NCBI GenBank assembly: GCA_022072455.1
Contig: JAJVHY010000001.1
Span: 3,832 to 67,831 of the forward strand
Direction: 5' to 3'
Source: Verrucomicrobiia bacterium
GTDB taxonomy: Bacteria; Verrucomicrobiota; Verrucomicrobiia; Palsa-1439
Length of the DNA: 64,000 nt
Position 1 is the first letter of the stretch. Every line of letters starts with the position of its first letter. The notes beneath the pieces are model-generated. The model had not been told where the DNA came from, searched no databases, and was given only the letters and a program-made list of their open reading frames with translations. Position numbers and translations under genes: made by a program. Of the stretch, positions 7,056 through 52,404 are shown piece after piece.

Positions 7056-8480
7056 ATGAATAAAATTTTGGTGGTGGATGATGATGCGGATATTCGCCGG
7101 GCGTTTCGGCGGAATTTGGAGAGTCCCGAGCTGACGGTCGCGGAAGCGGCGGACGGACCGAGCGCCATTCACCAGGTCGCGGCGGTGCAGCCGGATGTGG
7201 TGGTGATGGATGTGCGGATGGGAGCCACGAACGGGCTGGATACGTTGAAGAAACTCCGGGAACTGAACCCGAAGTTGCTCATCATCATGATGACGGCGTA
7301 CGGGACGACGCAGACCGCCATCGAAGCGATGAAGCTCGGGGCCTACGACTACGTGTTGAAGCCGCTGGATGTGCCAAAGTTGAAGGCGTTGATCGCCGCC
7401 GCGTTGAAATCGGCGAAGGATATGCGCGAGGTGGTGAGTTATCAGCCGATGCTGGCGAAGGAGGATTACGCGGAAGGCATCGTCGGCAAGAGTGAAGCGA
7501 TGCAGCAGGTGTTCAAGATGATCGGGCAGGTGTCGAATTCGGAGGCGACAGTCTTGATCACCGGTGAGAGCGGCACCGGCAAGGAACTCGTGGCGCGGGC
7601 CGTTTATCACCATAGTCCACGCAAAGCGCAGCCGTTTCTGGCGATCAATTGCGCAGCGATACCGGAGAATTTGTTGGAGAGCGAGTTGTTCGGGCATGAA
7701 CGCGGGGCGTTCACGGGCGCGAGTGACCGGCGGATCGGGAAATTTGAGCAATGCGATCGCGGGACGTTGTTTCTGGACGAAATCGGGGACATGCCGCTTT
7801 CTACTCAGACGAAGATTTTGCGGGTGTTGCAGAATGGGGAGTTTCAGCGGGTCGGCGGCAATCAGACAATCACGGTGGATGTGCGGATCATTGCGGCGAC
7901 GAACAAGGCGTTGGAACGGCAAGTGGCAGAGAAGAAGTTCCGGGAGGACTTGTATTACCGGCTGAATGTGGTGCGGGTGCATTTGCCGCCGCTGCGGGAA
8001 CGGTTGGATGATTTGCCGGTGTTGGTGGATTACTTTTTGCAGAAATTGGCGAAGAACGTCCCCTCCTCCGCGCGCGGGAAGCGAATTGCGGTACCGGCAT
8101 TGCGCCAGTTGGAGAAGTACAGTTGGCCGGGGAATGTGCGCGAGTTGGAAAATTGCATGGAACGCGCGGCGGTGGTGTCGCGCGGCGAGCATATCGTGGT
8201 GGAGGATTTGCCGGCAGAGGTGCGGGAGCCACGAACGGTGACGGCGGCCACGGATTTGAATGCGGCGGTTGATTCTGCCGCGCAGGCGTTATTCGCGTTG
8301 GCCCGTCGGGACCGGTCGTTGAAACTGGTGCCGTTGATGGAGCGCGAGTTGATCATCCGCGCGCTCGCGGAGACCGGCGGCAATCAGGTGCAGACCGCGA
8401 AGCTGTTGGGTATCACGCGGGCCACTCTCCGCAAGCGGATCGAGAAGTTTGGGATTATGCGGCGGTTGGAAGTGAAGTAG
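7056..8480 (+). CDS. sigma-54-dependent response regulator (NtrC family bEBP: REC + AAA+ + Fis-type HTH)
   Basis: REC with phospho-acceptor region (VVVMDVRMG). Walker [15 protein letters not shown] motif (ERGAFTGA). ESELFGHE. C-terminal [25 protein letters not shown]. Confidence 0.9.
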
Positions 8481-8527
8481 TCACCGCGCACAACCTTGGG
8501 TTTCGGGGCCGCGATTTGCTACCGGGT

Positions 8528-10639
8528 CTACTGGAGCCGGGAGTAACTGGCGTATGACCCACTGACCGGGTTGTAGCCCTTATAAATGTATATCGCGCGC
8601 TGGTTCGCCCAGGCCGGTGGCAAGCCGGGCGGCACGTCGATACCGGAGCGGATGCGCTCATCCAATCGGATATCCAACCGGGTCCGGTAAGTTCCGTTCC
8701 GATTCAAGAGGACCTGATTACCGGCTGACATCGTGCCGAAGACACTGAGATAGGGTTGGTCAGCAGTATTCAGGTTGTTGTCCTTGAAATTGTTCTCCGC
8801 GTAGAGCATGGCGTGGATTTCACCACCAGTACCGAATTGGGCATCACCGAGGAAGATGTTGCCGCTGTTAGTCTGGGCTGGATCTTTGATGGCGATAAGC
8901 GCCACGCTATCGAGCGGATTGGTGGTGCCGCCGTTGTAATAGAATTCATCTGAGAGCGTGATATTGCCGCGAGCAACGATGGTGATTTTGATTCCGGGGT
9001 TGCGAAACCGGAAGTTCAATGCATTCGGGCTGTGGAGCCAGAGATTGCCATCCACGAAGTAGACCTTGTTGTTGCCGGTGGGGCTGATTGTGATCCGTGA
9101 CGAACTGCTGCTGTAGGCAGAGTCGGTCGGGTCTTCCAAGAAATAATCGTTCTTCCCGGCGATTTTCGTGTACGACCGGTCAGTCGGATTTTTTACGAAG
9201 ATATGCGACGGATTGGATTGCGAGGTGATTTTTCCCGAGCTGTTGAAGGTGTTGGCGGCAACGTTGATGTCGTGCCCCCACCGCGCGAGAGCGTCGGCCG
9301 GCGCCAAACCTGATTTCGGAAGATGGTAATACATGTGCTCAAGGTCCGGTGGTGTAATCGCAGGGTCACCCCCATTGGCGACCCGTTGACCAACTCCCGG
9401 AGCCGGCATCCCGCTGATGGAGCCGGTTGCTTGCGCGCCATAGTCATAGATGCCATTCCGGTCATCGATGAAGGTTTCGCCGACGTCGTACTTATCGTTT
9501 AAGTCCGTGTAGACCTCACCGGTATCCCAAGTGCCGTTGCCTTCATCGGAAAACAACTCCGCCGGCCAACTGGAGCAGGAGTACGACCTTCCACCAGAGG
9601 TATATGAGGTGCGCCAAGACCACGAGCCGCCGCTGAGTCGCCAGTAGCCGCCAGCGGAGTCGTAGCGACCGTTGATTCGTTGCGAACGGCTGGTGTCTTC
9701 AGTCCATTGCTCGCCTGTATTCCAGACTCCATTGCCCTTGTCGACAAAGCTTTCCCCCGGATTGAAAACGCCATCGCCATTGGCATCAACAAACGGTTCG
9801 CCAAATGTGAAAACCCCGTCACCATTGAGATCAGTGTAATTCTCACTCGAATCGTAGGTCCCGTTGCCGATGCTATCAACGAAAGCTTCACCCATGTCGA
9901 ACCGACCGTTACCGTACGTCACAACGCCGTTGGTGGATGACCGGTAGGTATTGAACGCAGTCGAGGTGACTGGGTTCGTGAAAGTCTGGGAGATGCCGGC
10001 TTCCTGATAGGGCTCACCTTCGTTCCACCAACCATTCGTATTCGAGTCAGTGAAGATTTCCGGGTGGCGGAGCCGCGCCCCCCCGGTGATGGCAATGTTG
10101 CCATTGACGAAAACATCGCCTAAGACAAAGTCGGCTCCGGTGCCGGTGCCGCCGAGTTGGAGCGTGTAATTGGTGGCCCCGCTGGAATTACCGGCGTAGA
10201 GAGCCGCGGCGTAAAGGGAGTGAATGGTATCACTGGTGGTATGATAGACCGATTGAATCGAGGCGGAAGCCCGGACGCCGTCAAAGTATCCCGTAGCCGT
10301 GATCAACTTGTTCGTTGCGTTGAGATTGACCACCGTGGTCTGGAAACTCCACTTGGCTGACTGAAACCGATTCGTCAAAGTTATGAATTCGCTGGATTCG
10401 TTGGTGGTAATGATTCCGTCGCCGCCGGCGTTTAACTCCATCATTGCGGCGGCAATCGCCGCATCAGCTAATTGGGCCGCGCGCTCGTACGAATAATTGG
10501 TCCGATTGGCCTGCCCATAGGTTCCCATGGTCAGCAGGGTGGCGCCAATCCCCACGGAAGCGATGGTCAGAAGAATCAGGGTGGCGGCTAACGCGCTGGC
10601 GCGGTCGTTTCCTTTTCGAGATGAGGTTTTCGTTTGCAT
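8528..10639 (-). CDS. large PilX-N-like minor pilin / putative pilus tip protein with Asp/Gly-rich Ca-binding-type repeats
   Basis: Start at ATG 10637-10639, preceded by AGGAGA. N-terminal hydrophobic segment ASALAATLILLTIASVGIGATLL, PilX-N-like. Repeats GEAFVDSIGNGTYD, GEPFVDANGDGVFNPGESFVDKGNGVWNTGE, DEGNGTWDTGEVYTDLNDKYDVGETFIDDRNGIYDYG. Last gene of the pseudopilin operon. Confidence 0.6.
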   Translation of the reverse strand: MQTKTSSRKGNDRASALAATLILLTIASVGIGATLLTMGTYGQANRTNYSYERAAQLADAAIAAAMMELNAGGDGIITTNESSEFITLTNRFQSAKWSFQTTVVNLNATNKLITATGYFDGVRASASIQSVYHTTSDTIHSLYAAALYAGNSSGATNYTLQLGGTGTGADFVLGDVFVNGNIAITGGARLRHPEIFTDSNTNGWWNEGEPYQEAGISQTFTNPVTSTAFNTYRSSTNGVVTYGNGRFDMGEAFVDSIGNGTYDSSENYTDLNGDGVFTFGEPFVDANGDGVFNPGESFVDKGNGVWNTGEQWTEDTSRSQRINGRYDSAGGYWRLSGGSWSWRTSYTSGGRSYSCSSWPAELFSDEGNGTWDTGEVYTDLNDKYDVGETFIDDRNGIYDYGAQATGSISGMPAPGVGQRVANGGDPAITPPDLEHMYYHLPKSGLAPADALARWGHDINVAANTFNSSGKITSQSNPSHIFVKNPTDRSYTKIAGKNDYFLEDPTDSAYSSSSSRITISPTGNNKVYFVDGNLWLHSPNALNFRFRNPGIKITIVARGNITLSDEFYYNGGTTNPLDSVALIAIKDPAQTNSGNIFLGDAQFGTGGEIHAMLYAENNFKDNNLNTADQPYLSVFGTMSAGNQVLLNRNGTYRTRLDIRLDERIRSGIDVPPGLPPAWANQRAIYIYKGYNPVSGSYASYSRLQ

Positions 10640-10671
10640 GTGTATTTCTCCTAAATTGGGGTGGAGATTTT

Positions 10672-11214
10672 TCAGAAATTTCGCAGTCGAATGCCGGTGT
10701 CGACCTCGGCGGCACAATCAGTGCCGCGGTACGGTTTGCTAATCCGGTAAGCAACCCGCAAGGTGTTGGCACCTGTTTTTTCAAAGACATTCCGGGTCGG
10801 TACTGTCATTACTTTCGATAATCCAACGGCGACGATGTTGGTCGCGGCGGTTGTGGAAACGTCTGACAAGAAGGTCAAGCGCCCCAAGCCGGAGGCGGTT
10901 GGATCGCTGATATAGGAAAATTGGCTCACCTTTCCACTCGGCATTCGAACGCGTACCCAGTTCCCACTGACATCAACGGCGTCAATGGCCACCGCATTGC
11001 GGATGTAGCGTTGCACTGACTGGGATGACCGATTGGCCTCATGTTGAACGGCTGCATATTGATTACTTTTCTGCACGACTCGCATCATCCAGATAAACGA
11101 GGTCATCAATGCGCTGAGCGCCAAAAGCGAAACTGTCGCCGCCACCATGACTTCAACGAGTGTAAATCCGGATTGCCGGATCCGCTGCTGCCGTTTTGTT
11201 TTGCCTGGTTTCAT
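10672..11214 (-). CDS. prepilin-type N-terminal cleavage/methylation domain protein (minor pseudopilin)
   Basis: N-terminal class-III signal GFTLVEVMVAATVSLLALSAL. Overlaps the upstream pseudopilin gene by 4 nt. Confidence 0.75.
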   Translation of the reverse strand: MKPGKTKRQQRIRQSGFTLVEVMVAATVSLLALSALMTSFIWMMRVVQKSNQYAAVQHEANRSSQSVQRYIRNAVAIDAVDVSGNWVRVRMPSGKVSQFSYISDPTASGLGRLTFLSDVSTTAATNIVAVGLSKVMTVPTRNVFEKTGANTLRVAYRISKPYRGTDCAAEVDTGIRLRNF

Positions 11215-11639
11215 TTCGATACAATTGTTGAAAAGGTATTAGTCAATCGACGCTTGCTGACCGGCGACTGAAATTCGACGTTCACATGGATTTCCAGATA
11301 ACTCGCAGTCATCAGATCCGCCACCTCGACCAAGTTCGTCGCGTGACCAATCACGTCGACGGTCCGGATGACAACTGGGTCGACGTTCTGAATTAAATTG
11401 GTTTGGGGTGCGAAAGGGGTTTGCAGGACGATGTTGTTAAATCCGCCGGCGGCAATTTCCTCGAGTTTTTGGATGCCGAGATTACGTGCTTCGGCCGAGA
11501 CCATGTTGTAGCGGGCTTTCCGCATCAGCATGACTCCGGTAGAAATCACCACACCAGAGAGCAACGCCAAAATGGCGAAGGCCATGCTGACTTCCAGCAG
11601 GCTGAATCCGCGGGTATTGGTGAGTTTGGCGAGTTTCAT
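11211..11639 (-). CDS. prepilin-type N-terminal cleavage/methylation domain protein (minor pseudopilin)
   Basis: N-terminal GFSLLEVSMAFAILALLSGVV. Confidence 0.75.
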   Translation of the reverse strand: MKLAKLTNTRGFSLLEVSMAFAILALLSGVVISTGVMLMRKARYNMVSAEARNLGIQKLEEIAAGGFNNIVLQTPFAPQTNLIQNVDPVVIRTVDVIGHATNLVEVADLMTASYLEIHVNVEFQSPVSKRRLTNTFSTIVSK

Positions 11640-11685
11640 AACCTTCTCACTTGACGGTCATGATCAAGAGAGCCAACTACCATTT

Positions 11686-11701
11686 AGCACTGGATATGCC
11701 A
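11686..11701 (-). promoter_or_regulatory. putative sigma-54 (-24/-12) promoter TGGCAT-ATCCA-GTGCT for the pseudopilin / PilX-like operon
   Basis: Minus-sense TGGCATatccaGTGCT, 47 nt upstream of ATG 11639. One of five copies of the same 16-nt element in the pilus locus. Confidence 0.6.
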
Positions 11702-11901
11702 CCCGATTTTCTGGTCACCAAGCAGTTCCACTGGCGCGGCGGGTGGATAAAACTTTGCATAAACCGAACACAGTTGAGCACAACGTGAACAACAAGTCGC
11801 AACCATCACCGGATGGAACGGTTGCGGAGTCAGTCGCAGTATCAAGAAATGATTCTCATTACTGCGAACGCGACGGCTCGGAAGCGCCCGAGAGCCCACC
11901 T

Positions 11902-13359
11902 TTACTTCGAGCCGAAATTCTGGACCGGGCGCTTGGGCCAAGGAACGAGGTTGCGTGGGTTGGGCTTGGCATTATCGGTGGGCATCCACTTGTCGTTGGT
12001 GTAAATCTCTTCCCGAGGCAGGCCAGCCACTTTGTCTTCCAGCCCGGTGCTGCCGTCCGGGGAGATGATGGTTGGAGTCAGAAAAATCAACAATTCACGT
12101 TTGGTTTTACTGAGGCTTTTGCTGCGAAACAGCGCCCCCACCAAGGGAATGTCACCCAAAACCGGGACTTTGGTGTATTTGTCGCTGGTGTCTTGCCGCA
12201 TCAGTCCGCCCATGGCAAGTGTGCTGCCACTCTTGATCAAGACAGTCGTGCTGGCGGAGCGATTATCGATGACTGGAATGTCGATGCCTTGGAACGACGC
12301 GACGCCCGACTGGCTCCCAGCTTCAGGACTGACTTCCAAGGTGACGAAACCGTTTTTATTAATGTGCGGTGTGCAGTTCAACACGATGCCGATGTCTTTG
12401 TAATCAAACCCAGAAATGCTGAACGCCCCTTTCGTTTCGCTATAGGTGAAGTTCGGAACGGGAAATTGCGTGGCGATGGCTATTTTCGCCTTGCCGTTGT
12501 CAGTGGTCACGACGCGGGGGCTGGCGAGCAACTCCGTGTCAGAATCGCTGTTCATGAACGAAAACAGAATCGTCGCCGAACCGGCATCCAAGAGTGCCGT
12601 TGAGGGAATCCACGGGCCACCGGCCAAATCTTTGGAGAGCGTGAACGGGCCAGCCGACAGGCGATGGTCAATGAGGGTTTGGCTCCAGTTGATGCCGAGG
12701 TCTTTCTTGGGATTCTTGGTGGTCTCGACAAACTTGGCTTCGATCATCACTTGCCGGGTTTGGGTATCCATCTTCTCAATCAAGGGCAACAGCATGACCA
12801 AACTCGAGGGCGTATCCGAAATCACCAACGCATTCCCGCGTGTGTCCACCTGGATCTTCCCCTGCCGGGACAGCAACGGATCGAGGGTCTTCTTGATTTC
12901 ATCCGCCTTCGCGTATTCCAAGCTCACGATCTGCGCTTCCACCGGCTCAGCTGCCAATGACTCCTTGGTCTTGACACGCACAACATTCTTGTCCTTGACG
13001 AAGCCGTAGCCTTTCGATTCCACGATCATCCGCAACGCGTCGTCGTAACCGACCCCTTCCAAATGGACGGTAACCTTCCCAATCACTTCTTCACCAACAA
13101 TCAAATTGATACCGGCTTTTGTCGCGAGTGTGCGAAGGACGTTCTGAATGTCCGCCTCGTGATAATCAATGACCAGAACATCAGCGCTTGCGGCGGCATC
13201 AGCGGGAGGGGCGGGAGCTTCGACTTTGGGGGGAGCAACTTCAACTACCGGCGTGGCAGCCGCAGGGGCTTCCACGGCGGGTGTCGCTGGATCCTGGGCT
13301 TGCCCCGCCCTGGCGACGCCGAGGATGACTGCGATGATGATGATCATTTGCCGTTTCAT
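11902..13359 (-). CDS. pilQ: type IV pilus / T2SS secretin (PilQ/GspD family)
   Basis: C-terminal secretin signature VPVLGDIPLVGALFRSKSLSKTKRELLIFLTPTII. N-terminal signal peptide MKRQMIIIIAVILGVARAGQA. Start at ATG 13357-13359 with GGAGGG RBS; this start also leaves room for the promoter element. Confidence 0.85.
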   Translation of the reverse strand: MKRQMIIIIAVILGVARAGQAQDPATPAVEAPAAATPVVEVAPPKVEAPAPPADAAASADVLVIDYHEADIQNVLRTLATKAGINLIVGEEVIGKVTVHLEGVGYDDALRMIVESKGYGFVKDKNVVRVKTKESLAAEPVEAQIVSLEYAKADEIKKTLDPLLSRQGKIQVDTRGNALVISDTPSSLVMLLPLIEKMDTQTRQVMIEAKFVETTKNPKKDLGINWSQTLIDHRLSAGPFTLSKDLAGGPWIPSTALLDAGSATILFSFMNSDSDTELLASPRVVTTDNGKAKIAIATQFPVPNFTYSETKGAFSISGFDYKDIGIVLNCTPHINKNGFVTLEVSPEAGSQSGVASFQGIDIPVIDNRSASTTVLIKSGSTLAMGGLMRQDTSDKYTKVPVLGDIPLVGALFRSKSLSKTKRELLIFLTPTIISPDGSTGLEDKVAGLPREEIYTNDKWMPTDNAKPNPRNLVPWPKRPVQNFGSK

Positions 13360-13405
13360 ACGAAACCCTCCGACTGCATTAGGTTGTTGGATCGTCATGG
13401 TGTTT

Positions 13406-13421
13406 AGCACCTCTCAGGCCA
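13406..13421 (-). promoter_or_regulatory. putative sigma-54 promoter variant TGGCCT-GAGAG-GTGCT for pilQ
   Basis: Minus-sense TGGCCTgagagGTGCT immediately after the pilP stop, 47 nt upstream of the pilQ ATG. One mismatch to the other four copies. Confidence 0.45.
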
Positions 13422-13877
13422 TTACTGTTTTTCAGCCGAACTGGTCGTTGAATTTTCTGGATTGAGTTGGAGCTCAACCTTCTGCCCATTAACTTCCAAG
13501 GTAACTTCGCGCCGGGTGATGGCGGTCGCCTTGACCTTGACCGGAGTGCCCTTGACTGTCACTTCAACTGATTTATTCAGAGTCACCAAAGTACCGTTTA
13601 CGATGGCGGAGGGAGCGGTGGCTTGATAGAGGATGCCATCCAGTTGAAACCCAACCGGGACGCCGACCGGCTGGGCAGTTTCGGACGCGACCGCGGTGGC
13701 CTTCGCAAATGGGTCACGGGTTTGTGTCGGAACGTACGTTGAAACTTGGAGATTGAGATCGAACTCCGGCTTCGCGGCCGATGCCGCAGCGACTGAGGAG
13801 GCAAGCAGCAGCCCGCGGACAACAATCCCGCGCGACCGGCCAACTACCCTTTTGAACTTATCCAATCGAGAGGTCAT
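13422..13877 (-). CDS. small periplasmic pilus-assembly protein (PilP-like by position)
   Basis: 151 aa with N-terminal hydrophobic/signal segment. Sits between PilO-like and the secretin. Assignment is by gene order, not by motif. Confidence 0.4.
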   Translation of the reverse strand: MTSRLDKFKRVVGRSRGIVVRGLLLASSVAAASAAKPEFDLNLQVSTYVPTQTRDPFAKATAVASETAQPVGVPVGFQLDGILYQATAPSAIVNGTLVTLNKSVEVTVKGTPVKVKATAITRREVTLEVNGQKVELQLNPENSTTSSAEKQ

Positions 13878-14479
13878 GCGCTTTTCTTCTTTTCAGGTTC
13901 ACCGGCTGCGGTTGGTGGTTTCGGATGAATCAGGAGCACCAGGTCGACATTGATCCGACAATCACCGCGCGCGGCATCGGCCACATTCATCGAAAGATTC
14001 CGGAGCTGACCAGTGGGAAACAAGTTCTCCAAGACCGTGACAAACCGACCCAAATCATCGTACTTGCCAGTGATATCCAACCGGGTGGTGTAAAGCTCAT
14101 ACTTGGGCTTGGGGGTATACGGGCTTTTGATGCCGGGACTGAGGCTGCCGATAGTTACCGGATGTTTTTCCGCCAGGAGGCTGATTTCACGGACGATCCA
14201 ACTATACGGATCACCGGCAACCATGCGCTCCTCTTGCACCTTCAGAAATTCAACGATGCGCTCGCGGAGGACGGTGTTGTTGGCTTCCTCTTTGGCCAGA
14301 GCCTCGGCCGAGGCGATCTGATCCTTCAGCTTGGTGATCTCGGCCTTTTTCAGTCCCATGTCTTCCAGATTTTTGAGGACGTAAAAGTTCACAACGGCCC
14401 CGACTGCCGTGAGACTGACAATGACAATCAAGATCAACTTCTGGAGTTTGTCTTTGGGCAATGATTTCAGAAATTTCAT
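13874..14479 (-). CDS. PilO-like inner-membrane pilus assembly protein
   Basis: Single N-terminal TM (LILIVIVSLTAVGAVVNFYVL) followed by coiled-coil. Position between PilN-like and PilP-like. Confidence 0.55.
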   Translation of the reverse strand: MKFLKSLPKDKLQKLILIVIVSLTAVGAVVNFYVLKNLEDMGLKKAEITKLKDQIASAEALAKEEANNTVLRERIVEFLKVQEERMVAGDPYSWIVREISLLAEKHPVTIGSLSPGIKSPYTPKPKYELYTTRLDITGKYDDLGRFVTVLENLFPTGQLRNLSMNVADAARGDCRINVDLVLLIHPKPPTAAGEPEKKKSA

Positions 14480-15150
14480 TTTTTCTCCTTGAACACGCAG
14501 TCAATGGAGAACGCGACAGTCGGCAGACCGTTGGCGGCGGTATCACTTTCACCCTTGCCGGTCGAGCGGGCAATTGACCGCAGGCGAACGTCCGAGACGT
14601 ACTGACTGAACACGGGATGAACGCGGAGGCTCTTGATGAATTCATCCACCTCGATCTCAGGTCGCGCGCTGGCGGCTGATCCATCCAAGGTAAGATTCAA
14701 CCGCTCCACGGTTTTCGGCGCAGCCGCTCGGGCGGCTTTGATCTCGCTCAAACCGGGGGCCGGCGGCGCACTGACAGCGATCGTTTCGGTCGCAAATGCA
14801 AATCGGAACTGGCTCAATTGAATCGAGGCGGGAATAACATCTTTAATCAACGCCAGTTGCGGGCCATAGATTTGCCGGCTCCGGTTGATTGCCAGATAAT
14901 CGCTGGCCGTCATCATCACCGTTTTGGTTTCGCCGGCATCACTGCTGGCTTGGAGCACATCCCAGTGGCTTTGGAGTTTGGCGGCTTCGGACCGGCGGCG
15001 TTCCGCAATTTGTCCGAAAAGAACACCGAGAGCCACGACGACCAGCAGTAAGCCACCGCCGACCGCCACGCTGATTTTGAGCGGATCGCGCGCCTGCGCT
15101 TGCTGCGAGAGTTGCTCCTCGACGAGTAAATTGATCGTAATGGCTGTCAC
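14476..15150 (-). CDS. PilN-like fimbrial assembly protein
   Basis: N-terminal ITINLL motif, then TM helix VAVGGGLLLVVVALGVLFG. Immediately downstream of pilM. Confidence 0.6.
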   Translation of the reverse strand: MTAITINLLVEEQLSQQAQARDPLKISVAVGGGLLLVVVALGVLFGQIAERRRSEAAKLQSHWDVLQASSDAGETKTVMMTASDYLAINRSRQIYGPQLALIKDVIPASIQLSQFRFAFATETIAVSAPPAPGLSEIKAARAAAPKTVERLNLTLDGSAASARPEIEVDEFIKSLRVHPVFSQYVSDVRLRSIARSTGKGESDTAANGLPTVAFSIDCVFKEKK

Positions 15151-15159
15151 AGGTTCTTT

Positions 15160-16206
15160 CTACAATTGGCCGGTGGCGGCACCGATGGCCGCGGCCAGAC
15201 TGGGTGCCAGAGCGGTGAGTTGTGGTCCTTCCCCATTAAAATGCGCTGTGTCGAAAGTGCTGACGGGATTCCAAGGTTCGATTCGAAAACCGACCTCTTC
15301 GCTCACAATCTCGAGCAAAGCAGGCGAACAAGCTGATCCGCCACAAGCCAACGCCCGGGCTACATGACACTCATGTTGTCGTTCAAAGAAATCGATTGAC
15401 GAACGAATCTCACGCACTAACGGCCCCAATGATTGCCGGATGAGGGGTTGTACCGCATCCGACATCTTCCATTTTTCCTCCTCGGCGGCTTTCGGTTCCA
15501 GCTTGAGCATTTGGCCGACATACTCATTGATGAGATCGCCGCCAAACTGAGTGATTCGGGTCATGAGCGGGTGACCTTGCCGCAGGATATTCATGCTGGT
15601 TGACCGCGCGCCAATGTCGAGGAGGAGAACCACATCTTTTTCACACAAGTTGCTCTCGCAGACTTGGAGTGCATTGACCACTGAGACAGCGGTCAATTCG
15701 ATGGTTGAGGGTTTGATCTTCGCGGCGGCAAGCGCATTGCGGTACCAATTCACCTCGTCACGTTTTGCGCCTGCACAGAGAACCTTGATCAAGGCTGACT
15801 TTTGCGGTTTCGGATCGCTGCTGCCATCCTCCAATTCAAAAACATCCAAGTAATAATCAGAGTAGTCGCGGCGCAAATACTGGGCACTGAAGTTCTGCAA
15901 CGCCGCCTTCACCTCTTGGAGCGGCACGCGCGGGAACTCGGCGTGACAAACCATGGCCGAATTACAACTCAGCGTGACACGGATCCGCTGATCCTCTGTG
16001 CCCAATTGCTTCACGGCTTCCCGGAGATCTGCGGCATACTGTTCGGCGTTGTTCGTACCATTCGCCTGCGTCCGCACAGCATATTTTGACAATTGCAGAG
16101 CGGCGCCTTCGCGGCGAATCAAGGCCGCCTTGATCTGCCGCGTTCCGAGATCCAGTCCAACAGCGAAATTGGGTCTGGCTTTTTGTTTATTCCGTTTGAA
16201 GATCAT
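15160..16206 (-). CDS. pilM: type IV pilus assembly ATPase-like protein PilM (actin/HSP70 fold)
   Basis: N-terminal VGLDLGTRQIKAALI. Overall PilM/FtsA-like organisation. 348 aa. Confidence 0.85.
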   Translation of the reverse strand: MIFKRNKQKARPNFAVGLDLGTRQIKAALIRREGAALQLSKYAVRTQANGTNNAEQYAADLREAVKQLGTEDQRIRVTLSCNSAMVCHAEFPRVPLQEVKAALQNFSAQYLRRDYSDYYLDVFELEDGSSDPKPQKSALIKVLCAGAKRDEVNWYRNALAAAKIKPSTIELTAVSVVNALQVCESNLCEKDVVLLLDIGARSTSMNILRQGHPLMTRITQFGGDLINEYVGQMLKLEPKAAEEEKWKMSDAVQPLIRQSLGPLVREIRSSIDFFERQHECHVARALACGGSACSPALLEIVSEEVGFRIEPWNPVSTFDTAHFNGEGPQLTALAPSLAAAIGAATGQL

Positions 16207-16223
16207 TTCCCATTTGTGTGATT

Positions 16224-16239
16224 AGCACTTGATATGCCA
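16224..16239 (-). promoter_or_regulatory. putative sigma-54 promoter TGGCAT-ATCAA-GTGCT upstream of pilM
   Basis: Exact motif copy, but only 18 nt upstream of the annotated pilM ATG. The spacing is anomalous versus 47-51 nt for the other copies. Confidence 0.5.
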
Positions 16240-16345
16240 GCAGTTAGGAGAGGTGGGGCTAACCACGCCCGGCCCGCGATTGTTCAGAACTGTCAATCAA
16301 TCTGGATTTCACCGGCCTGAAATGCGCATGTGCCCAAAAGCAACA

Positions 16346-16370
16346 GGGGCAGGTGGAAATCCCCTGCCCC
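16346..16370 (-). terminator. rho-independent terminator hairpin downstream of the pilin gene
   Basis: ggggcagg-tggaaatc-ccctgcccc. In minus sense the stem is followed by a T-rich TGTTGCTTTTGG tail. Confidence 0.55.
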
Positions 16371-16392
16371 TGTCCAATGTAGCTGGGTGACC

Positions 16393-16782
16393 TTAGTAAG
16401 CGCCCCAGTCAATCCCCACATTCGCGAGCAACGACTTGGTCGCGGTCGAGATCTTCACCTGGTTTGTGCCAACGGTGTTGATCGTGAACGCATTGCCCAA
16501 TATGTCGTTATTGCTCCAAGCGGACTTCAGATACGAAGCCGCCCCCGTTGACGCGCTCGTATCAATCGTTGCCCCGTCGGACTTCCCCATCTCCAGTGCC
16601 CACTGGTCAATGGCGGCGTCCATCTGACGCGCGTCATTAAGAATCCGACGGCCTTGCGATTGCTTGCGAGCTTTGGCAAAGCCCGGCACTGACAACGCCG
16701 CGAGCAACCCGATGATGGCTACGACAATCATAATTTCAACCAAGGTAAACGCGGCTTGGGAATTGCGAATCTTGTTAATCAT
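16393..16782 (-). CDS. prepilin-type pilin (likely major pilin / pseudopilin G-like)
   Basis: Start ATG 16780-16782 with GGGAGG RBS. N-terminus MINKIRNSQAAFTLVEIMIVVAIIGLLAALSVP is a class-III signal with Glu5. Own sigma-54 promoter and own terminator. Confidence 0.8.
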   Translation of the reverse strand: MINKIRNSQAAFTLVEIMIVVAIIGLLAALSVPGFAKARKQSQGRRILNDARQMDAAIDQWALEMGKSDGATIDTSASTGAASYLKSAWSNNDILGNAFTINTVGTNQVKISTATKSLLANVGIDWGAY

Positions 16783-16830
16783 TTTCGTGTCACCTCCCTT
16801 CCCGATAAAGAGACTCATGCGATTCTCAGT

Positions 16831-16846
16831 AGCACTACGGATGCCA
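16831..16846 (-). promoter_or_regulatory. putative sigma-54 promoter TGGCAT-CCGTA-GTGCT for the pilin gene
   Basis: 49 nt upstream of the pilin ATG. Adjacent to the NtrC-family regulator gene. Confidence 0.6.
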
Positions 16847-16877
16847 AACGGCGCAACTCCCTGAAAGACATGCGATA

Positions 16878-16896
16878 TCTGCCGTTTCGCGGCAGA
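16878..16896. promoter_or_regulatory. perfect inverted repeat TCTGCCG-N5-CGGCAGA, candidate enhancer (UAS) for the sigma-54 activator
   Basis: tctgccgtttcgcggcaga, about 45 nt upstream of the -24 element of the pilin promoter. Confidence 0.35.
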
Positions 16897-16972
16897 ATTT
16901 CCGAAAAATCAGGTGTTTTTGAACCAAGCGGTTGCAAACATGATTCGCATTTTCTGGAATGCGACGCCGCGA

Positions 16973-18406
16973 TCAATCACGCTCCTCAGCCGCCTCATTG
17001 GCTGTCAACTTCCGGTACAGCGTCGCCGTACTAATCCCCAATAGCTCCGCCGCCCGCTCCTTACTGCCGCCGCTGGCACGTATGGCGTGCTCAATGTATT
17101 GAACTTCCTGTTCATGAAGAAAGTCCTTCAACTGCAACCGGGGCACGGTCAGATTGTCGACTACCGGCGGCGACAGTTCACTTCCATTGGTCGGCGGGGG
17201 CGCAGCATCAGACGCAACCAGCGCTTCGAGAACTCGCTCCGGTAAATCGCGCACCGCCAGCACACCGTGATCGCACAAGGCACAAGCCCGCTCGATGGCA
17301 TTTTGCAGTTCCCGAACGTTACCGGGCCAGGCATATCCTTTCAGGCTGGCCATGACTTCCGGTCGCACTGTGACCGGTGGACTGGCATTGCGCCGCGCGT
17401 TATCCTGAACGAAATGTTGCACCAGCAACGGAATGTCATCCGCCCGCTCACGCAACGCCGGCAACTCGATCGGTATCACGCTGATCCGGTAGTAAAGATC
17501 TTCCCGGAAGGATTTATCTTCCATCTTCTTGCGGAGCGGTTCGTTGGTGGCCGCCACAACCCGCACGTCCACCTTGACTGTGTCGTTATCACCAACACGT
17601 CGCAGCTCTTTGTCTTGCAGAAACCGCAACAGTTTGGTCTGTAAACTGAGCGGCATGGAACCGACTTCATCCAGGAAAATGGTCCCGCCATCGGCATGCT
17701 GGAACAATCCCACCTTGTCGAAGGCCGCACCGGTAAACGACCCCTTGCGGTGGCCGAATAGTTCTGATTCCAGCAGATGCTCTGGCAACGCGGCACAGTT
17801 CACTGCCACAAAGGGCATGTTGGCGCGGCGACTGTTGAAATGCAGGGCGCGGGCGACCAGTTCTTTGCCGGTACCGCTTTCGCCAAGGACAAGCACGGTT
17901 GAATCCGTATTCGCGACGCGCCGGATCATGCGGAACACTGCCTCCATGGACGCGCTTCGTCCGATGATGTTGTCGAACTGGAATTTTTCCTTGAGCTGTG
18001 TTTTGAGCTCGGCGTTTTCCTGAAGCGCGCGGACGGCCTGCTGATGAAACAAGGCGGTTTCAACCCGCCGCACCAGTTCATCAATGCGAAATGGTTTTTC
18101 GATGAAATCCTGGGCGCCAAGCCGGAGAGCTTCGATGGCGCGATCCTTCGTGGCGTTACCGGTGATCATCACGATCGGGATGTTCCGGTTGTGGTCTTTG
18201 ACTTGCCGAAGTAATTCAAGCCCACGCGGCTTGCCTTCCGGCATCTCGATGTCGGCCAGAATGAGATCGGGCGGGTCTTGTTTGACCAGTTCGATGGCCC
18301 GTTCCGCACTGCTGGCGGTAATCACCTGCCGGCGTTCGTCGCGCAAGACCTCGGTCAACACCGAGACCATGTTCGGGTCATCTTCGGCCACTAGGATTTT
18401 CAACAT
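16973..18406 (-). CDS. sigma-54-dependent response regulator (NtrC/PilR-like bEBP)
   Basis: REC (LILADIEMPEGK). [14 protein letters not shown] (GAFTGA variant). ESELFGHRKG. C-terminal HTH RAAELLGISTATLYRKL. Located between pilC and the pilin gene. Confidence 0.9.
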   Translation of the reverse strand: MLKILVAEDDPNMVSVLTEVLRDERRQVITASSAERAIELVKQDPPDLILADIEMPEGKPRGLELLRQVKDHNRNIPIVMITGNATKDRAIEALRLGAQDFIEKPFRIDELVRRVETALFHQQAVRALQENAELKTQLKEKFQFDNIIGRSASMEAVFRMIRRVANTDSTVLVLGESGTGKELVARALHFNSRRANMPFVAVNCAALPEHLLESELFGHRKGSFTGAAFDKVGLFQHADGGTIFLDEVGSMPLSLQTKLLRFLQDKELRRVGDNDTVKVDVRVVAATNEPLRKKMEDKSFREDLYYRISVIPIELPALRERADDIPLLVQHFVQDNARRNASPPVTVRPEVMASLKGYAWPGNVRELQNAIERACALCDHGVLAVRDLPERVLEALVASDAAPPPTNGSELSPPVVDNLTVPRLQLKDFLHEQEVQYIEHAIRASGGSKERAAELLGISTATLYRKLTANEAAEERD

Positions 18407-18429
18407 ACAACTTTCCTCCTGCAGTTCTT

Positions 18430-18450
18430 GGCGGCACCCCCAGTGCCGCC
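18430..18450 (-). other. GC-rich hairpin between pilC stop and the activator gene start (possible attenuator / partial terminator)
   Basis: ggcggcac-cccca-gtgccgcc. No T-run follows. The AGGAGG RBS of the activator gene lies just downstream. Confidence 0.3.
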
Positions 18451-18459
18451 GATTCCCGG

Positions 18460-19665
18460 TTAAAACTGGACTGCTTGATTGAGCTTGAAGATCGGCAAAA
18501 ACATACAGATGACGATGGAGCCAACAACCACGCCCAGAAACACAATCAGCAACGGCTCGATCAGCGACGTCAAACCGGAGAGCGTCGCTTCAATTTCCTC
18601 ATCGTAGAAATCGGAGAGTTTCTCGAGCATCGTATCCACCTTGCCGGTTTGTTCACCGGCGGCAATCATCCGAATCAACATCGGCGGAAAGATGGGATGC
18701 TGCGAAAGCGCAGTGGCAAGATTGTCGCCGCGCTCGATGCTGCTGGCGGTTTTTTCGATGGCAAATTCGACCTGCGTGTTACCGGAAGTCTGACCGACGA
18801 TGCGGAGGGTGTCCAAAATCGGCACGCCCGCCCGCAGCAACGCGGCGAACGTCCGCGCAAACCGCGAGATGCAGATTTTGTGGACAAGTTTTCCGAACAA
18901 CGGAAATTTCAATTTGGCCCGATCCCAAATAATCGCGCCATGGTGGGTTTTGATGATCTTGAAGAATCCCCAGACGATGGCACCGACAATCCCGGCAAAG
19001 ATCAAGAAATACGCCCGCAACATGTCACTAATTCGGATGAGAATCTGCGTCGGCACCGGCAGGGCCGCGCCGAAGTCTTTGAAGATGTCGCCGAAGATCG
19101 GAATGACCTTCATCATCAAAAAGAGACAGATGCAAATCGCGATGCAACAGACGATCGTCGGATACATCATAGCCGATTTGACTTTTTTCTTAAGCCGGGC
19201 CGACGCTTCGAGATAGCACGCGAGCCGGTCGAGAATTTCTGCAAGCAGACCGCCAGTCTCACCGGCTTCCACCATCTTCACATACAGCTTCACAAACACC
19301 TTGGGATGACAAGCCAGGCAGACAGAAAACGCTTCGCCGCTCTCCAGTTTCGTCGTGACTTCGCGCAGCACGGGCTTGAGGGCCAGACTATCCGTTTGTT
19401 CTTCCAAGGCATTCATCGCCTGCACCAACGGCAGCCCGGCATCCATCATTGTCGCCAATTGCCGGGTAAAAACGACGAGGTCTTGCTGTTTGACGTTGCC
19501 TTGGGAACGCTTGGCGTGCTTCCGCGCCGCGCCAGTGTTCATCTGCACGACCATCAGGCTGCGGCCAATCAGTTGCGCTGCTGCGGAACCTTGATCCGCC
19601 GCCTCGATCTGACCGCTGACCATTTTGCCCGACGCATCGCGCGCTTGATAATTGAAAACTGGCAT
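18460..19665 (-). CDS. pilC: type II secretion system F-family platform protein (PilC/GspF)
   Basis: 401 aa. Two GspF-type repeats. Three TM segments. 4-nt-type close spacing to flanking genes. Confidence 0.9.
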   Translation of the reverse strand: MPVFNYQARDASGKMVSGQIEAADQGSAAAQLIGRSLMVVQMNTGAARKHAKRSQGNVKQQDLVVFTRQLATMMDAGLPLVQAMNALEEQTDSLALKPVLREVTTKLESGEAFSVCLACHPKVFVKLYVKMVEAGETGGLLAEILDRLACYLEASARLKKKVKSAMMYPTIVCCIAICICLFLMMKVIPIFGDIFKDFGAALPVPTQILIRISDMLRAYFLIFAGIVGAIVWGFFKIIKTHHGAIIWDRAKLKFPLFGKLVHKICISRFARTFAALLRAGVPILDTLRIVGQTSGNTQVEFAIEKTASSIERGDNLATALSQHPIFPPMLIRMIAAGEQTGKVDTMLEKLSDFYDEEIEATLSGLTSLIEPLLIVFLGVVVGSIVICMFLPIFKLNQAVQF

Positions 19666-19715
19666 TGACTCGCTGTCCTGTTCTGGGTTGCGAAATACTC
19701 CCAGTTCTCAATTCT

Positions 19716-19731
19716 AGCACCAGACATGCCA
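19716..19731 (-). promoter_or_regulatory. putative sigma-54 promoter TGGCAT-GTCTG-GTGCT for pilC
   Basis: 51 nt upstream of the pilC ATG. Confidence 0.6.
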
Positions 19732-19835
19732 CAACCTCTCAAAGCTGCGAAACCAGCCAAAACGCACCCAATTGCAGCCCTCGTCAGGACTCCCTTGGAA
19801 TAAACCGGACATTTATGCACGCCGGGCAAGGTGCG

Positions 19836-20024
19836 TTACTCTTTCGGCGCGGCCCAGCCTTGAGCCATCAAACCCAATAAACGTTGCAGCGCGGCATCGT
19901 AGGTGATACCGCGCTGCTCCGCATCCATCTTCGCTCGTTTGTCGAGTTGGGCCGCCATGGCAGCGGACTTGTCGGATGGACAGCCCAACCGCCGCAGCAC
20001 TTCCGCCAACTCATCAGGGGTCAT
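19836..20024 (-). CDS. small hypothetical protein (62 aa), start overlaps PPIase stop (ATGA)
   Basis: ORF track only. Helical, no recognised motif. Confidence 0.35.
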   Translation of the reverse strand: MTPDELAEVLRRLGCPSDKSAAMAAQLDKRAKMDAEQRGITYDAALQRLLGLMAQGWAAPKE

Positions 20025-20608
20025 TTCTTGAGCGCATCAGCTCGGGACATCACCTTGATACTCTGAATGACCACGCGCTCGGTCGGCCGGCTTCGTTCTG
20101 GACCTTCCGTCGGAGTATCGCCGAGCTTCTTCAGCACTTCGACACCTTCCACCAGCTTCCCGAACGCTGTGTACTGCCCGTCCAGAAACGACGCATCGCC
20201 GAGGCAAATAAAGAACTGACAGCCGGCCGAATCCGGATCCTGCGAGCGCGCCATCGAAACCACGCCGAGTTGATGGCTGTTCTTATTGAACTCCGCCTTG
20301 ATCTTGTAGCCGGGATCCCCGGTCCCCACACGGCCGTTATTCGGATCTTTACTGAGCGGGTCGCCACCCTGAATCATGAACCCCTTGATGATCCGATGAA
20401 ACGTCGTCCCGTCATAAAAGCCTTTGCCGGCCAGCTTCTGAAAATTCTCGACGGTCTTCGGCGCATCCTTTTCAAAGAACTCGATGACCATCTTGCCCGC
20501 CTTGGTTTCGATCACTGCCAACTTGTCTGTCTCTGCCGCCATAAGACTGCTTCCTTTCAGGATCAGTGTTGCCAACAACACGCCAGTTATTAGTTTTACA
20601 CTTCGCAT
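20021..20608 (-). CDS. ppi: peptidyl-prolyl cis-trans isomerase, cyclophilin type, secreted
   Basis: Cyclophilin signature FHRIIKGFMIQGGD, ...GQFFIC.... N-terminal signal peptide. Confidence 0.9.
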   Translation of the reverse strand: MRSVKLITGVLLATLILKGSSLMAAETDKLAVIETKAGKMVIEFFEKDAPKTVENFQKLAGKGFYDGTTFHRIIKGFMIQGGDPLSKDPNNGRVGTGDPGYKIKAEFNKNSHQLGVVSMARSQDPDSAGCQFFICLGDASFLDGQYTAFGKLVEGVEVLKKLGDTPTEGPERSRPTERVVIQSIKVMSRADALKK

Positions 20609-52393: not shown

Positions 52394-52404
52394 AACTCCT
52401 CAAC

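Follow-up and report, generated by a model that had tools for sequence, protein, structure and literature searches.

Putative sigma-54 promoters before five transcription units of a type IVa-pilus-like gene cluster in Verrucomicrobiia

In a 64-kb stretch of DNA (the window) from the genome of an uncultured soil or freshwater member of the Verrucomicrobiia, genes for a pilus-like machine are accompanied by a recurrent short element and by two regulator genes of the NtrC family, here called bEBP1 and bEBP2. The question raised by this locus is whether these elements are sigma-54 promoters, and which regulator would activate them. The cluster runs from pilC through the activator, pilin, and pilM to the genes in the N, O, and P positions, followed by the secretin, a pair of minor pilins, and finally a large protein.

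18460–19665, minus strand: pilC-type inner-membrane platform protein (Pfam T2SSF, E 4.8e-62)
16973–18406, minus strand: in-cluster NtrC-family response regulator bEBP2 (Pfam REC, Sigma54_activat, and HTH_8)
16393–16782, minus strand: major prepilin-like gene, 129 aa, with an AFTLVE N-terminus (Pfam N_methyl)
15160–16206, minus strand: pilM, actin-like pilus assembly protein (Pfam PilM_2, E 1e-26)
14476–15150, minus strand: pilN-position gene, 224 aa (sub-threshold Pfam PilN, E 0.13)
13874–14479, minus strand: pilO-position gene, 201 aa (sub-threshold Pfam PilO, E 0.02; conserved order)
13422–13877, minus strand: pilP-position gene, 151 aa (no family match in Pfam or NCBIfam)
11902–13359, minus strand: secretin of the PilQ/GspD family (Pfam Secretin, Secretin_N, and GspD N0)
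11211–11639, minus strand: minor prepilin-like protein, 142 aa (Pfam N_methyl)
10672–11214, minus strand: minor prepilin-like protein, 180 aa (Pfam N_methyl)
8528–10639, minus strand: large protein of the minor-pilin operon, 703 aa when translated from ATG 10639
7056–8480, plus strand: second NtrC-family response regulator bEBP1 (Pfam REC, Sigma54_activat, and HTH_8)

For comparison, 35 related Verrucomicrobiia loci with a PilM identity of 32–74% were used, 30 of which are genome loci totaling 545 kb. The proteins of PilC and the major prepilin are 69–73% and 67–76% identical in relatives, respectively, and the N-terminus of PilM, including M1, is conserved in 18 homologues. The pilN and pilO assignments are putative, based on the weak family matches and on gene order; the place and order of the pilN-position gene are kept in all relatives. 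The pilP assignment is by position only, as the gene lies between the pilO-like and secretin genes, an arrangement that is also conserved. The 703-aa protein has an N-terminal membrane helix and repeated NGDGVF..GE.FVD motifs, and it matches no Pfam or NCBIfam family; it is 78% identical in one relative (L001) and 46% identical in another (L030). The whole is best explained as a type IVa-pilus-like assembly cluster.

Five elements of the form TGGCAT-N5-GTGCT precede genes of this cluster; spacings are counted between the motif's 3' end and the ATG.

19716–19731, minus strand: sigma-54-type -24/-12 element before pilC (TGGCATgtctgGTGCT), exact motif, 51 nt to ATG 19665
16831–16846, minus strand: sigma-54-type element before the major pilin gene (TGGCATccgtaGTGCT), exact motif, 49 nt to ATG 16782
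16224–16239, minus strand: sigma-54-type element before pilM (TGGCATatcaaGTGCT), exact motif, only 18 nt to ATG 16206
13406–13421, minus strand: sigma-54-type element before the secretin gene (TGGCCTgagagGTGCT), one mismatch, 47 nt to ATG 13359
11686–11701, minus strand: sigma-54-type element before the minor-pilin operon (TGGCATatccaGTGCT), exact motif, 47 nt to ATG 11639

The earlier note had reported four exact sites and one single-mismatch site, and all were recovered at the positions and on the strand given there. Four exact matches are present in the window against 0.02 expected, and none of 100 shuffles reached four. When one mismatch is permitted, the total becomes six against 1.05 expected, the two additions being the secretin element (TGGCCT, off-consensus at position 5) and a plus-strand match at 5395–5410, which is intragenic and attributable to chance. 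All five minus-strand elements are intergenic and co-oriented with the pilus genes, and each is followed by A (GTGCTA). The reported distance of 47–51 nt for four of the five also agrees with the measured values. The motif fits the sigma-54 consensus TGGCAC-N5-TTGCW with a GG-to-GC spacing of exactly 10 nt. The 18-nt spacing of pilM implies a 5'UTR of about 7 nt, which is unusual for a gene that normally has a ribosome-binding site; GGAGG precedes both the secretin ATG 13359 and the pilin ATG 16782. No sigma-70-like hexamer pair was recognized in the five intergenic regions, with the reservation that this consensus is poorly characterized in Verrucomicrobia, and further housekeeping promoters may accompany the five elements.

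The elements are conserved well beyond the source genome. In the 545 kb of the 30 related genome loci, TGGCAY-N5-NTGCT has 79 matches against about 2.2 expected, and every one of them is inside the pilus cluster; 74 are on the coding strand, no more than 110 nt ahead of pilC, pilin, or pilM. With a gene-anchored search, an orthologous copy was found before pilC in 21 of 22 relatives and before the first pilin gene in 29 of 30 (usually 47–58 nt from the start, up to 66). The pilM element was found in 24 of 30, always 17–38 nt from the start, and is not recognizable in the other six. For the secretin gene, TGGC(C/T/G)Y-N5-NTGCT was matched in 26 of 29 relatives, and position 5 is nearly always C. 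At the minor-pilin operon the element is identical in L001 and L035, and NGG(C/T)AY-N5-NTGCT was observed in 17 of 20 more distant relatives inspected. As negative controls, no -24/-12 element was found before pilN in the relatives, nor before the in-cluster activator gene in the 24 relatives carrying it.

The elements are thus far above chance, and throughout a class-level clade they occupy orthologous positions even as the DNA around them varies. The GG and GC blocks are fixed, and spacer and flanks are nearly uninformative (about 0–0.4 bits, with 0.7 at one spacer position). In an unbiased, start-codon-anchored alignment of the pilC upstream regions from 16 loci, only TGGCAT, TGCT, and the start codon are invariant. 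The GTGCT form originally proposed is exact in the source genome, but its G is specific to that genome; the position, at which the canonical consensus has T (element position 12), varies among relatives, giving NTGCT. The five-unit layout recurs in about 30 related genomes, and the proposal of five activator-gated sigma-54 units is strongly supported by -24/-12 blocks that stay conserved at orthologous sites. These comparisons, with the blocks invariant and the spacer and flanks randomized, are the principal evidence: the five elements are very probably genuine sigma-54 promoters, and the layout is ancestral to the clade.

Both regulators are of the NtrC type, as described earlier, but they do not flank the locus. 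The gene for bEBP2 lies within the cluster, with pilC on one side and the pilin gene on the other, an order conserved in relatives, and bEBP1 is encoded outside on the opposite strand, convergent with the cluster. bEBP2 has D52, T82, K104, and a GSFTGA motif in its AAA+ domain, while bEBP1 has D52 and the canonical GAFTGA. To our knowledge, proteins with the sigma-54 interaction domain and a GAFTGA/GSFTGA loop have no role without sigma-54. No NCBIfam model scored above threshold to indicate orthology between bEBP2 and PilR. Starting 53 nt after pilC and having no promoter element of its own, bEBP2 is probably co-transcribed with pilC.

Screening of essentially all larger open reading frames of the window with Pfam, together with a six-frame signature search, revealed no histidine kinase, PilB/PilT ATPase, prepilin peptidase, or RpoN, and the reported lack of PilB, PilT, and PilD in the window is thus confirmed. 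The activators had also been called kinase-less. No kinase gene adjoins either of them, but both receivers retain the normal phospho-acceptor Asp, Thr, and Lys, and in three relatives the locus encodes a hybrid PAS histidine kinase, exactly between the minor-pilin operon and bEBP1. Because the receiver domains are intact, both are interpreted as orphan regulators rather than kinase-independent ones.

The earlier note had two activators wiring the locus. The sigma-54 units stand; the part of a second activator is another matter, and there is an even chance that bEBP2 serves all five promoters by itself, bEBP1 being an unrelated NtrC-like housekeeping regulator beside the cluster. Such a reading refines the activator claim and leaves the sigma-54 regulon as it is. 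bEBP1 is outside the operons, and the housekeeping genes around it are just as syntenic: GCV_T, cyclophilin, and a 62-aa ORF occupy one flank, and the other has the CCA-adding enzyme and the M50 peptidase gene, which always adjoins bEBP1. bEBP1 is more conserved (70–81%) than bEBP2 (61–70%) or most pilus proteins, and it scores 519 bits with the NtrC model, near the cut-off of 559. In L030, the sigma-54-type pilin and secretin elements are kept with neither activator within 10 kb. The link of bEBP1 to the pilus promoters may thus be that of a bystander retained by general synteny. Conversely, the hybrid kinase beside bEBP1 in three relatives hints at a signaling module at that end of the cluster, and no other sigma-54-type promoter for bEBP1 to serve was found in the 64-kb window.

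The nature of the elements and of the machine can be questioned too. That TGGCAY-N5-NTGCT is read by a non-sigma-54 factor (a repressor, an alternative sigma factor, or another DNA-binding protein), or is not a promoter element, would fit the variability of position 12, and sigma-54 binding is itself predicted for a window in which rpoN was not observed. This is very improbable, however, as the invariant blocks with exactly 10 nt from GG to GC, T before GC, and T/A after it are the defining signature of sigma-54, and ECF-type or sigma-70-type elements differ in geometry. The orientation and the start-codon distance of 17–66 nt across loci suit promoters, and sigma-54-dependent activators are encoded in and beside the cluster. 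A pseudopilus machine for type II-like secretion or for DNA uptake (competence), having the same sigma-54 wiring with another output, is less far-fetched, though still unlikely. The major subunit is short, its best match, sub-threshold, is the type II major pseudopilin GspG (sub-threshold PilA and a ComGC match were also obtained, NCBIfam), the secretin has a GspD-type N0 domain and also matches the DNA-uptake porin HofQ, and the window offers no PilB/PilT ATPase or PilD peptidase to mark an extension-retraction system. Against it, a separate PilM_2 gene followed by three small genes with weak PilN/PilO similarity and a secretin is the type IVa order, not that of GspC/L/M; the PilQ subfamily is the best secretin model (263 bits against a cut-off of 284, NCBIfam), and the homologues are annotated as PilM in their sources.

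Two inverted repeats are located around the pilin gene.

16878–16896, no strand assigned: perfect palindrome TCTGCCG-N5-CGGCAGA, 32–50 nt upstream of the pilin -24 element
16333–16373, minus strand: intrinsic terminator-like hairpin after the pilin gene, an 11-bp G+C stem followed by TGCTTTTGGG

The palindrome is present and perfect as reported, but it cannot be called an upstream activator sequence because it is unique in the window even with two mismatches permitted, being absent from the other four promoters, is not conserved in the closest relatives L032 and L035, and folds as an RNA hairpin (-11.5 kcal/mol) downstream of the bEBP2 gene. No upstream motif common to the five promoters was found above chance. 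The repeat after the pilin gene has a folding energy of -29.1 kcal/mol (z -4.7).

The preferred reading, to which we assign a probability of about 0.78, is a type IVa-pilus-like cluster with five sigma-54-promoted units that would be signal-gated through an NtrC-family activator. Each unit, namely pilC(-bEBP2), pilin, pilMNOP, pilQ, and minor pilins, would begin with a sigma-54 (RpoN) -24/-12 promoter, which the holoenzyme is expected to bind as a closed complex. From the start sites predicted by the elements, transcription would begin only after ATP hydrolysis by the AAA+ activator, turned on by phosphorylation of its receiver domain, presumably by a kinase. The likeliest activator is bEBP2, encoded in the cluster; sharing a transcript with pilC, it would probably be positively autoregulated. 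The whole machine would be expressed in an all-or-nothing, signal-gated manner. Relative amounts could be set by three dosage features: the strong terminator behind the pilin gene, the separate, conserved, off-consensus, and presumably weaker secretin promoter, and the unusually short pilM leader. The secretin element directly adjoins the stop codon of the preceding gene, no terminator intervenes, and this promoter may add to read-through transcription instead of defining an independent unit.

Sigma-54 is generally associated with flagella and pili (Francke et al. 2011, PMC3162934), in a survey whose main text names neither Verrucomicrobia nor this locus, and our full-text literature search found no paper on sigma-54 control of pili in Verrucomicrobia. 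Control of the pilin gene and pilC by sigma-54/PilR is already known. PilS-PilR/RpoN control of pilA operates in Pseudomonas aeruginosa and Myxococcus xanthus, as cited in PMC7170775. The present locus resembles those systems in having an NtrC-family regulator (REC, AAA+, HTH_8) encoded in the pilus gene neighborhood and a -24/-12 promoter at the major pilin gene. It differs in that no PilS-type kinase gene is adjacent, the regulator gene follows pilC and lacks a separate promoter element, and elements precede not only the pilin gene but also pilC, pilM, the secretin gene, and the minor pilins.

A further parallel is Xanthomonas oryzae pv. oryzae, in which the pilus genes fall into many transcription units, most with GG-N10-GC (Yu et al. 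2020, PMC7170775). There, RpoN2 bound only the pilA, pilC, and pilR promoters in vitro, and RpoN2/PilRX control of these three is direct; RpoN2- and PilRX-dependent transcription extends to pilM and to the minor-pilin unit, and the other promoters match only the minimal GG-N10-GC, seemingly under indirect control (PMC7170775). The division into units with GG-N10-GC is shared by the locus described here, which belongs to Verrucomicrobiota instead of Pseudomonadota. In contrast to Xanthomonas, all five elements fit the extended consensus, with conservation that spans a class, the secretin gene has an internal promoter element, and no kinase is adjacent, whereas Xanthomonas has PilSX. The five-unit sigma-54 layout thus extends a known mode of switching on pili, and the extension is real but not surprising.

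The putative sigma-54 promoter elements of the pilus locus stand one in front of each of its five transcription units. A pattern search of the window with TGGCAT-N5-GTGCT gave four exact copies, against 0.02 expected in dinucleotide-preserving shuffles of the 64-kb window. With one mismatch allowed, two extra matches appeared, at 13406 (TGGCCT) and at 5395 on the plus strand; the latter is intragenic and was treated as a chance match. The five minus-strand sites are all intergenic, are co-oriented with the downstream gene and are followed by A. Each lies in non-coding DNA upstream of its gene and on that gene's coding strand; the distance to the start codon, counted from the 3' end of the motif by reading the sequence, is 18-51 nt. 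The positions, counts and distances given in the earlier note were all reproduced.

Promoter elements in the window:
11686, minus strand, exact copy, minor-pilin operon (ATG 11639), 47 nt
13406, minus strand, one mismatch, secretin (ATG 13359, GGAGG upstream), 47 nt
16224, minus strand, exact copy, pilM (ATG 16206), 18 nt
16831, minus strand, exact copy, pilin (ATG 16782, GGAGG upstream), 49 nt
19716, minus strand, exact copy, pilC (ATG 19665), 51 nt

A sigma-54 promoter was defined by GG and GC exactly 10 nt apart inside blocks resembling TGGCAC-N5-TTGCW, and this spacing is present in the four TGGCAT-N5-GTGCT(A) sites and in the one TGGCCT-N5-GTGCT(A) site. Looser sigma-54-like patterns revealed zero additional intergenic sites anywhere in the window. 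A consensus scan for sigma-70 promoters and terminators returned counts at background, with no promoter-like pair in the intergenic regions.

The genes of the locus were assigned with Pfam, except for the last gene of the minor-pilin operon, which was recognized by translation.

Genes in and beside the cluster:
7056-8480, plus strand, receiver + sigma-54 AAA+ + HTH_8 regulator (outer regulator, bEBP1)
8528-10639, minus strand, last gene of the minor-pilin operon, 703 aa
10672-11214, minus strand, prepilin (N_methyl)
11211-11639, minus strand, prepilin (N_methyl)
11902-13359, minus strand, secretin with a GspD-type N0 domain
15160-16206, minus strand, pilM (PilM_2)
16393-16782, minus strand, prepilin (N_methyl), the pilin gene
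16973-18406, minus strand, receiver + sigma-54 AAA+ + HTH_8 regulator (in-cluster activator, bEBP2)
18460-19665, minus strand, pilC (T2SSF)

The PilC platform protein (T2SSF) and three N_methyl prepilins are present, as in a type IVa pilus. PilM and the secretin are clear by Pfam, and PilM is 100% identical to an annotated protein of a Verrucomicrobiae metagenome-assembled genome. The order of the genes at the PilM-N-O-P-secretin positions is conserved in relatives. In the window, the ORFs between pilM and the secretin gene showed sub-threshold similarity to PilN (E 0.13) and PilO (E 0.02), and the gene at the PilP position had no match, so that the names pilN, pilO and pilP rest on position. 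The 8528-10639 protein has no Pfam or NCBIfam match. It carries an N-terminal membrane helix and repeated calcium-binding-like motifs (NGDGVF..GE.FVD), and it could be an adhesin or a tip protein associated with the pilus. Most relatives have two proteins in its place, of ~440-490 aa and 145-160 aa. Neither a histidine kinase, a PilB/PilT ATPase, a prepilin peptidase nor RpoN was found in the window, by Pfam on nearly all larger ORFs or by a six-frame signature search covering the rest. The absence of PilB, PilT and PilD from the window, claimed before, thus stands; these proteins were not found in the fetched loci of relatives either, and may be encoded elsewhere in the genome. The minus strand at the far end of the window (50020-63992) has a long series of genes in one orientation for glycoside-hydrolase-like proteins (GH109 C-terminal domain, GH20, melibiase-like, GH123-like N-terminal domain), together with one for a large FAD oxidoreductase and several whose products match no family; the series looks like a polysaccharide-degradation cluster.

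A PilM homologue profile led to 30 loci from species-representative genomes, and five more loci of closer relatives were obtained through exact-protein look-ups; PilM identity across the compared loci is 32% to 74%. The gene order is conserved. It starts with GCV_T, cyclophilin, a 62-aa ORF, sometimes inserted genes, pilC and the activator, continues with one to three pilin genes, pilM, N, O, P and the secretin gene, and ends with two minor pilins, one or two larger proteins, bEBP1 on the opposite strand, an M50 peptidase and the CCA-adding enzyme. The 62-aa ORF, which lies directly upstream of the pilC promoter in the window (19836-20024, minus strand), has no family match. Its counterparts in relatives show 58-72% identity and follow the cyclophilin gene, with the inserted genes separating them from pilC.

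In the 30 genome loci (545 kb), the consensus TGGCAY-N5-NTGCT has 79 matches, against ~2.2 predicted by base composition. In 74 cases the match is on the coding strand and no more than 110 nt upstream of pilC, pilin or pilM; the remaining five are also inside the pilus cluster, one before a minor-pilin operon and four divergent from the pilin gene. A gene-anchored search with a slightly looser pattern, for which we estimate ~0.02 matches per region by chance, found the element upstream of pilC in 21 of 22 loci, the first pilin gene in 29 of 30, pilM in 24 of 30 and the secretin gene in 26 of 29. The in-cluster activator and pilN, used as controls, had no element in any locus.

The four divergent elements represent a sixth sigma-54-type element, found on the minus strand of loci L007 (8908-8923), L008 (4731-4746), L011 (7462-7477) and L026 (8648-8663). 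They front a minus-strand gene between the activator and pilin genes, TPR-like where identifiable (L008 and L011); the window has no corresponding gene. In the stretch from the activator gene to pilM, relatives such as L002, L003, L031 and L032 carry two or three tandem pilin paralogues, and the window has one. The -24/-12 element usually precedes the first paralogue alone, the second in L031 and L032, and both in L011. One locus, L024, is a 2855-bp contig labelled Thiobacillaceae with the Verrucomicrobial pilin-pilM arrangement; its promoter elements match those of several Verrucomicrobiia loci exactly or nearly so, and the contig is probably mis-binned.

Over the 97 distinct sites, the information content of the spacer and flanks is ~0-0.4 bits per position, with 0.7 at one spacer position. 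When the pilC upstream regions were aligned solely on the start codon, the invariant columns were TGGCAT, TGCT and the start codon, and nothing else. These invariant blocks, together with the uninformative spacer and flanks, point to selection that targets the -24 and -12 blocks and the exact distance between them, which is the pattern expected of sigma-54 promoters. The G of GTGCT, which was part of the motif as originally proposed, is not conserved in relatives (NTGCT). Individual promoters have their own features: position 5 of the secretin element is C in place of A (TGGCCY) in almost every genome, the minor-pilin element can lack the first T (NGG(C/T)AY-N5-NTGCT), and the pilM element is always 17-38 nt from the start codon. 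A sigma-54 regulon of five units, as the earlier note had read the locus, is thus well supported by these conserved blocks at orthologous positions, as far as comparison of sequences can tell.

Sigma-54 promoters usually start transcription ~12 nt downstream of GC. With the element 18 nt from the ATG, the predicted 5'UTR of pilM (window 16206-16239) is ~7 nt, too short for a normal ribosome-binding site. An out-of-frame upstream ATG at the predicted pilM start site was considered as a leaderless mini-ORF and rejected, as it is not conserved in L001 or L035. Downstream of the pilin gene, a hairpin at 16333-16373 has an 11-bp G+C stem and a T-rich tail (-29.1 kcal/mol, z -4.7); it was missed in the terminator consensus scan because its loop is 9 nt. 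Such a structure is consistent with a highly expressed pilin transcript that ends here and with renewed transcription of pilM from the promoter in front of it. No terminator separates the secretin element from the gene upstream, whose stop codon it directly adjoins, and the element is best regarded as an internal promoter that adds to read-through. The bEBP2 gene follows pilC at a distance of 53 nt and lacks an element; the simplest reading is therefore that it is co-transcribed with pilC, which would place the activator under positive feedback. The leaders of the minor-pilin operon (11640-11685) and the secretin gene (13360-13405) are near-identical in the window, L001 and L035, and in L032 for the secretin only. 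Among the four closest genomes, the DNA upstream of these two promoters has diverged. Rfam gave no known RNA family across 8000-20500, scanned for leader elements, and shuffled sequence is at least as stable as the predicted hairpin in the minor-pilin leader.

Both regulators show the REC, sigma-54 AAA+ and Fis-type HTH domain order in Pfam. They retain the acidic pocket, the phospho-acceptor Asp (D52) and the conserved Thr and Lys, and the activator loops are GAFTGA in 7056-8480 and GSFTGA in 16973-18406. Judged from these residues, both are ordinary phosphorylation-dependent NtrC-family activators, orphan by adjacency; nothing suggests that either works without a kinase. Naming the two by NCBIfam failed, since every match is below its cut-off: the best are NtrC, AtoC and PEP-CTERM regulator models, the NtrC score of the outer regulator is 519 bits against a cut-off of 559, and no PilR-named model is among the best 25 matches listed. 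The nearest solved structures are FleQ, NtrX and NtrC1. HisKA and HATPase_c domains are absent from all scanned ORFs of the window and no H-box was found in the six-frame signature search; no PilS-type kinase lies next to either regulator there. The description of the pair as two kinase-less activators of the locus is not supported, both for these phospho-acceptor receivers and for the weight given to bEBP1: its synteny is that of the surrounding housekeeping genes, and it is more conserved than the pilus proteins, so that adjacency is weak evidence for a role in pilus control. In L002 (~18458-20602), L009 (17845-19998) and L013 (17585-19834) only, a hybrid PAS-HisKA-HATPase-REC kinase is encoded between the minor-pilin operon and the bEBP1 orthologue. 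These proteins of 717-749 aa share 74-81% mutual identity and are absent from the window and the other loci; the family is a candidate kinase for the source genome. The rpoN gene is absent from the 64-kb window and all fetched loci, and its presence in the source genome is implied by the two activators.

The sequence at 16878-16896 is indeed a palindrome, TCTGCCG-N5-CGGCAGA, and had been proposed as an upstream activating sequence (UAS) of the pilin promoter. A second palindrome, TCGCATT-N6-AATGCGA, is located directly after the bEBP2 stop codon; both have 7-bp arms and lie upstream of the pilin element, and neither is conserved in L032 or L035. By our estimate, chance alone would place approximately one palindrome with arms of 7 bp in the five upstream regions. 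The 16878-16896 palindrome occurs once in the window, even when 2 mismatches are allowed; none of the other four promoters contains it, and it has no aligned counterpart in the closest relatives. It folds as a hairpin downstream of the bEBP2 gene, and it could equally be the transcript-end hairpin of the activator gene; the UAS assignment is thus not upheld. A search for 8-, 10- and 12-mers with mismatches on both strands of the five window upstream regions, with shuffled controls, found no shared activator-binding motif above chance. One subclade has a conserved CTTGCAGAACTGCAAG ~100 nt upstream of the pilin element and a similar CAGCAGAACCGCAG upstream of the minor-pilin element. These are suggestive of activator-binding sites in that subclade, not of a general one. 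Another conserved block, …GCAAGAAAAAACTTGAC…, upstream of the pilC promoter in one subclade, was rejected as a UAS: in those genomes it overlaps or adjoins the 5' end of a divergent OB-fold gene, which explains its conservation.

On the furthest-reaching reading, the whole pilus machine may be a single-input sigma-54 module ancestral to Verrucomicrobiia, in which five promoters answer to one orphan, positively autoregulated NtrC-type activator and expression ratios are set by the promoters themselves. We put the probability of this reading at roughly 0.45. In such a module, the ratios would be hard-wired by the conserved weakened -24 element of the secretin gene, the near-leaderless pilM transcript and the terminator isolating the pilin gene. 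If true, the entire organelle, and not the pilin alone, is built only upon a signal from a kinase encoded elsewhere.

Verrucomicrobia abound in soil, freshwater and gut, and to our knowledge almost nothing is known about the regulation of their surface structures. Full-text literature searches for a link between sigma-54 and pili in Verrucomicrobia or Akkermansia gave no relevant result. The analysis suggests that sigma-54 controls the whole pilus assembly machine in this lineage, beyond the pilin. It provides a concrete regulon for a widespread uncultured clade, with five promoters, a leading candidate for the activator and, from three relatives, a family of candidate kinases, and the ~100 orthologous sites are usable for a sigma-54 promoter model of the phylum.

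Control of pilin genes by sigma-54 and PilR-type regulators is classical and long established, and the general picture is therefore unchanged; the regulon is clean and testable for an understudied phylum and will not surprise a specialist. The pilA, pilC and pilR genes of Xanthomonas oryzae are direct targets of RpoN2 and PilRX, and a GG-N10-GC element is present in most of its 13 pilus transcription units (PMC7170775). The locus analyzed here differs from that and other known systems in the full-consensus elements before every unit, including the internal secretin promoter, in the orphan activator located behind pilC, and in a conservation that spans a class of another phylum.
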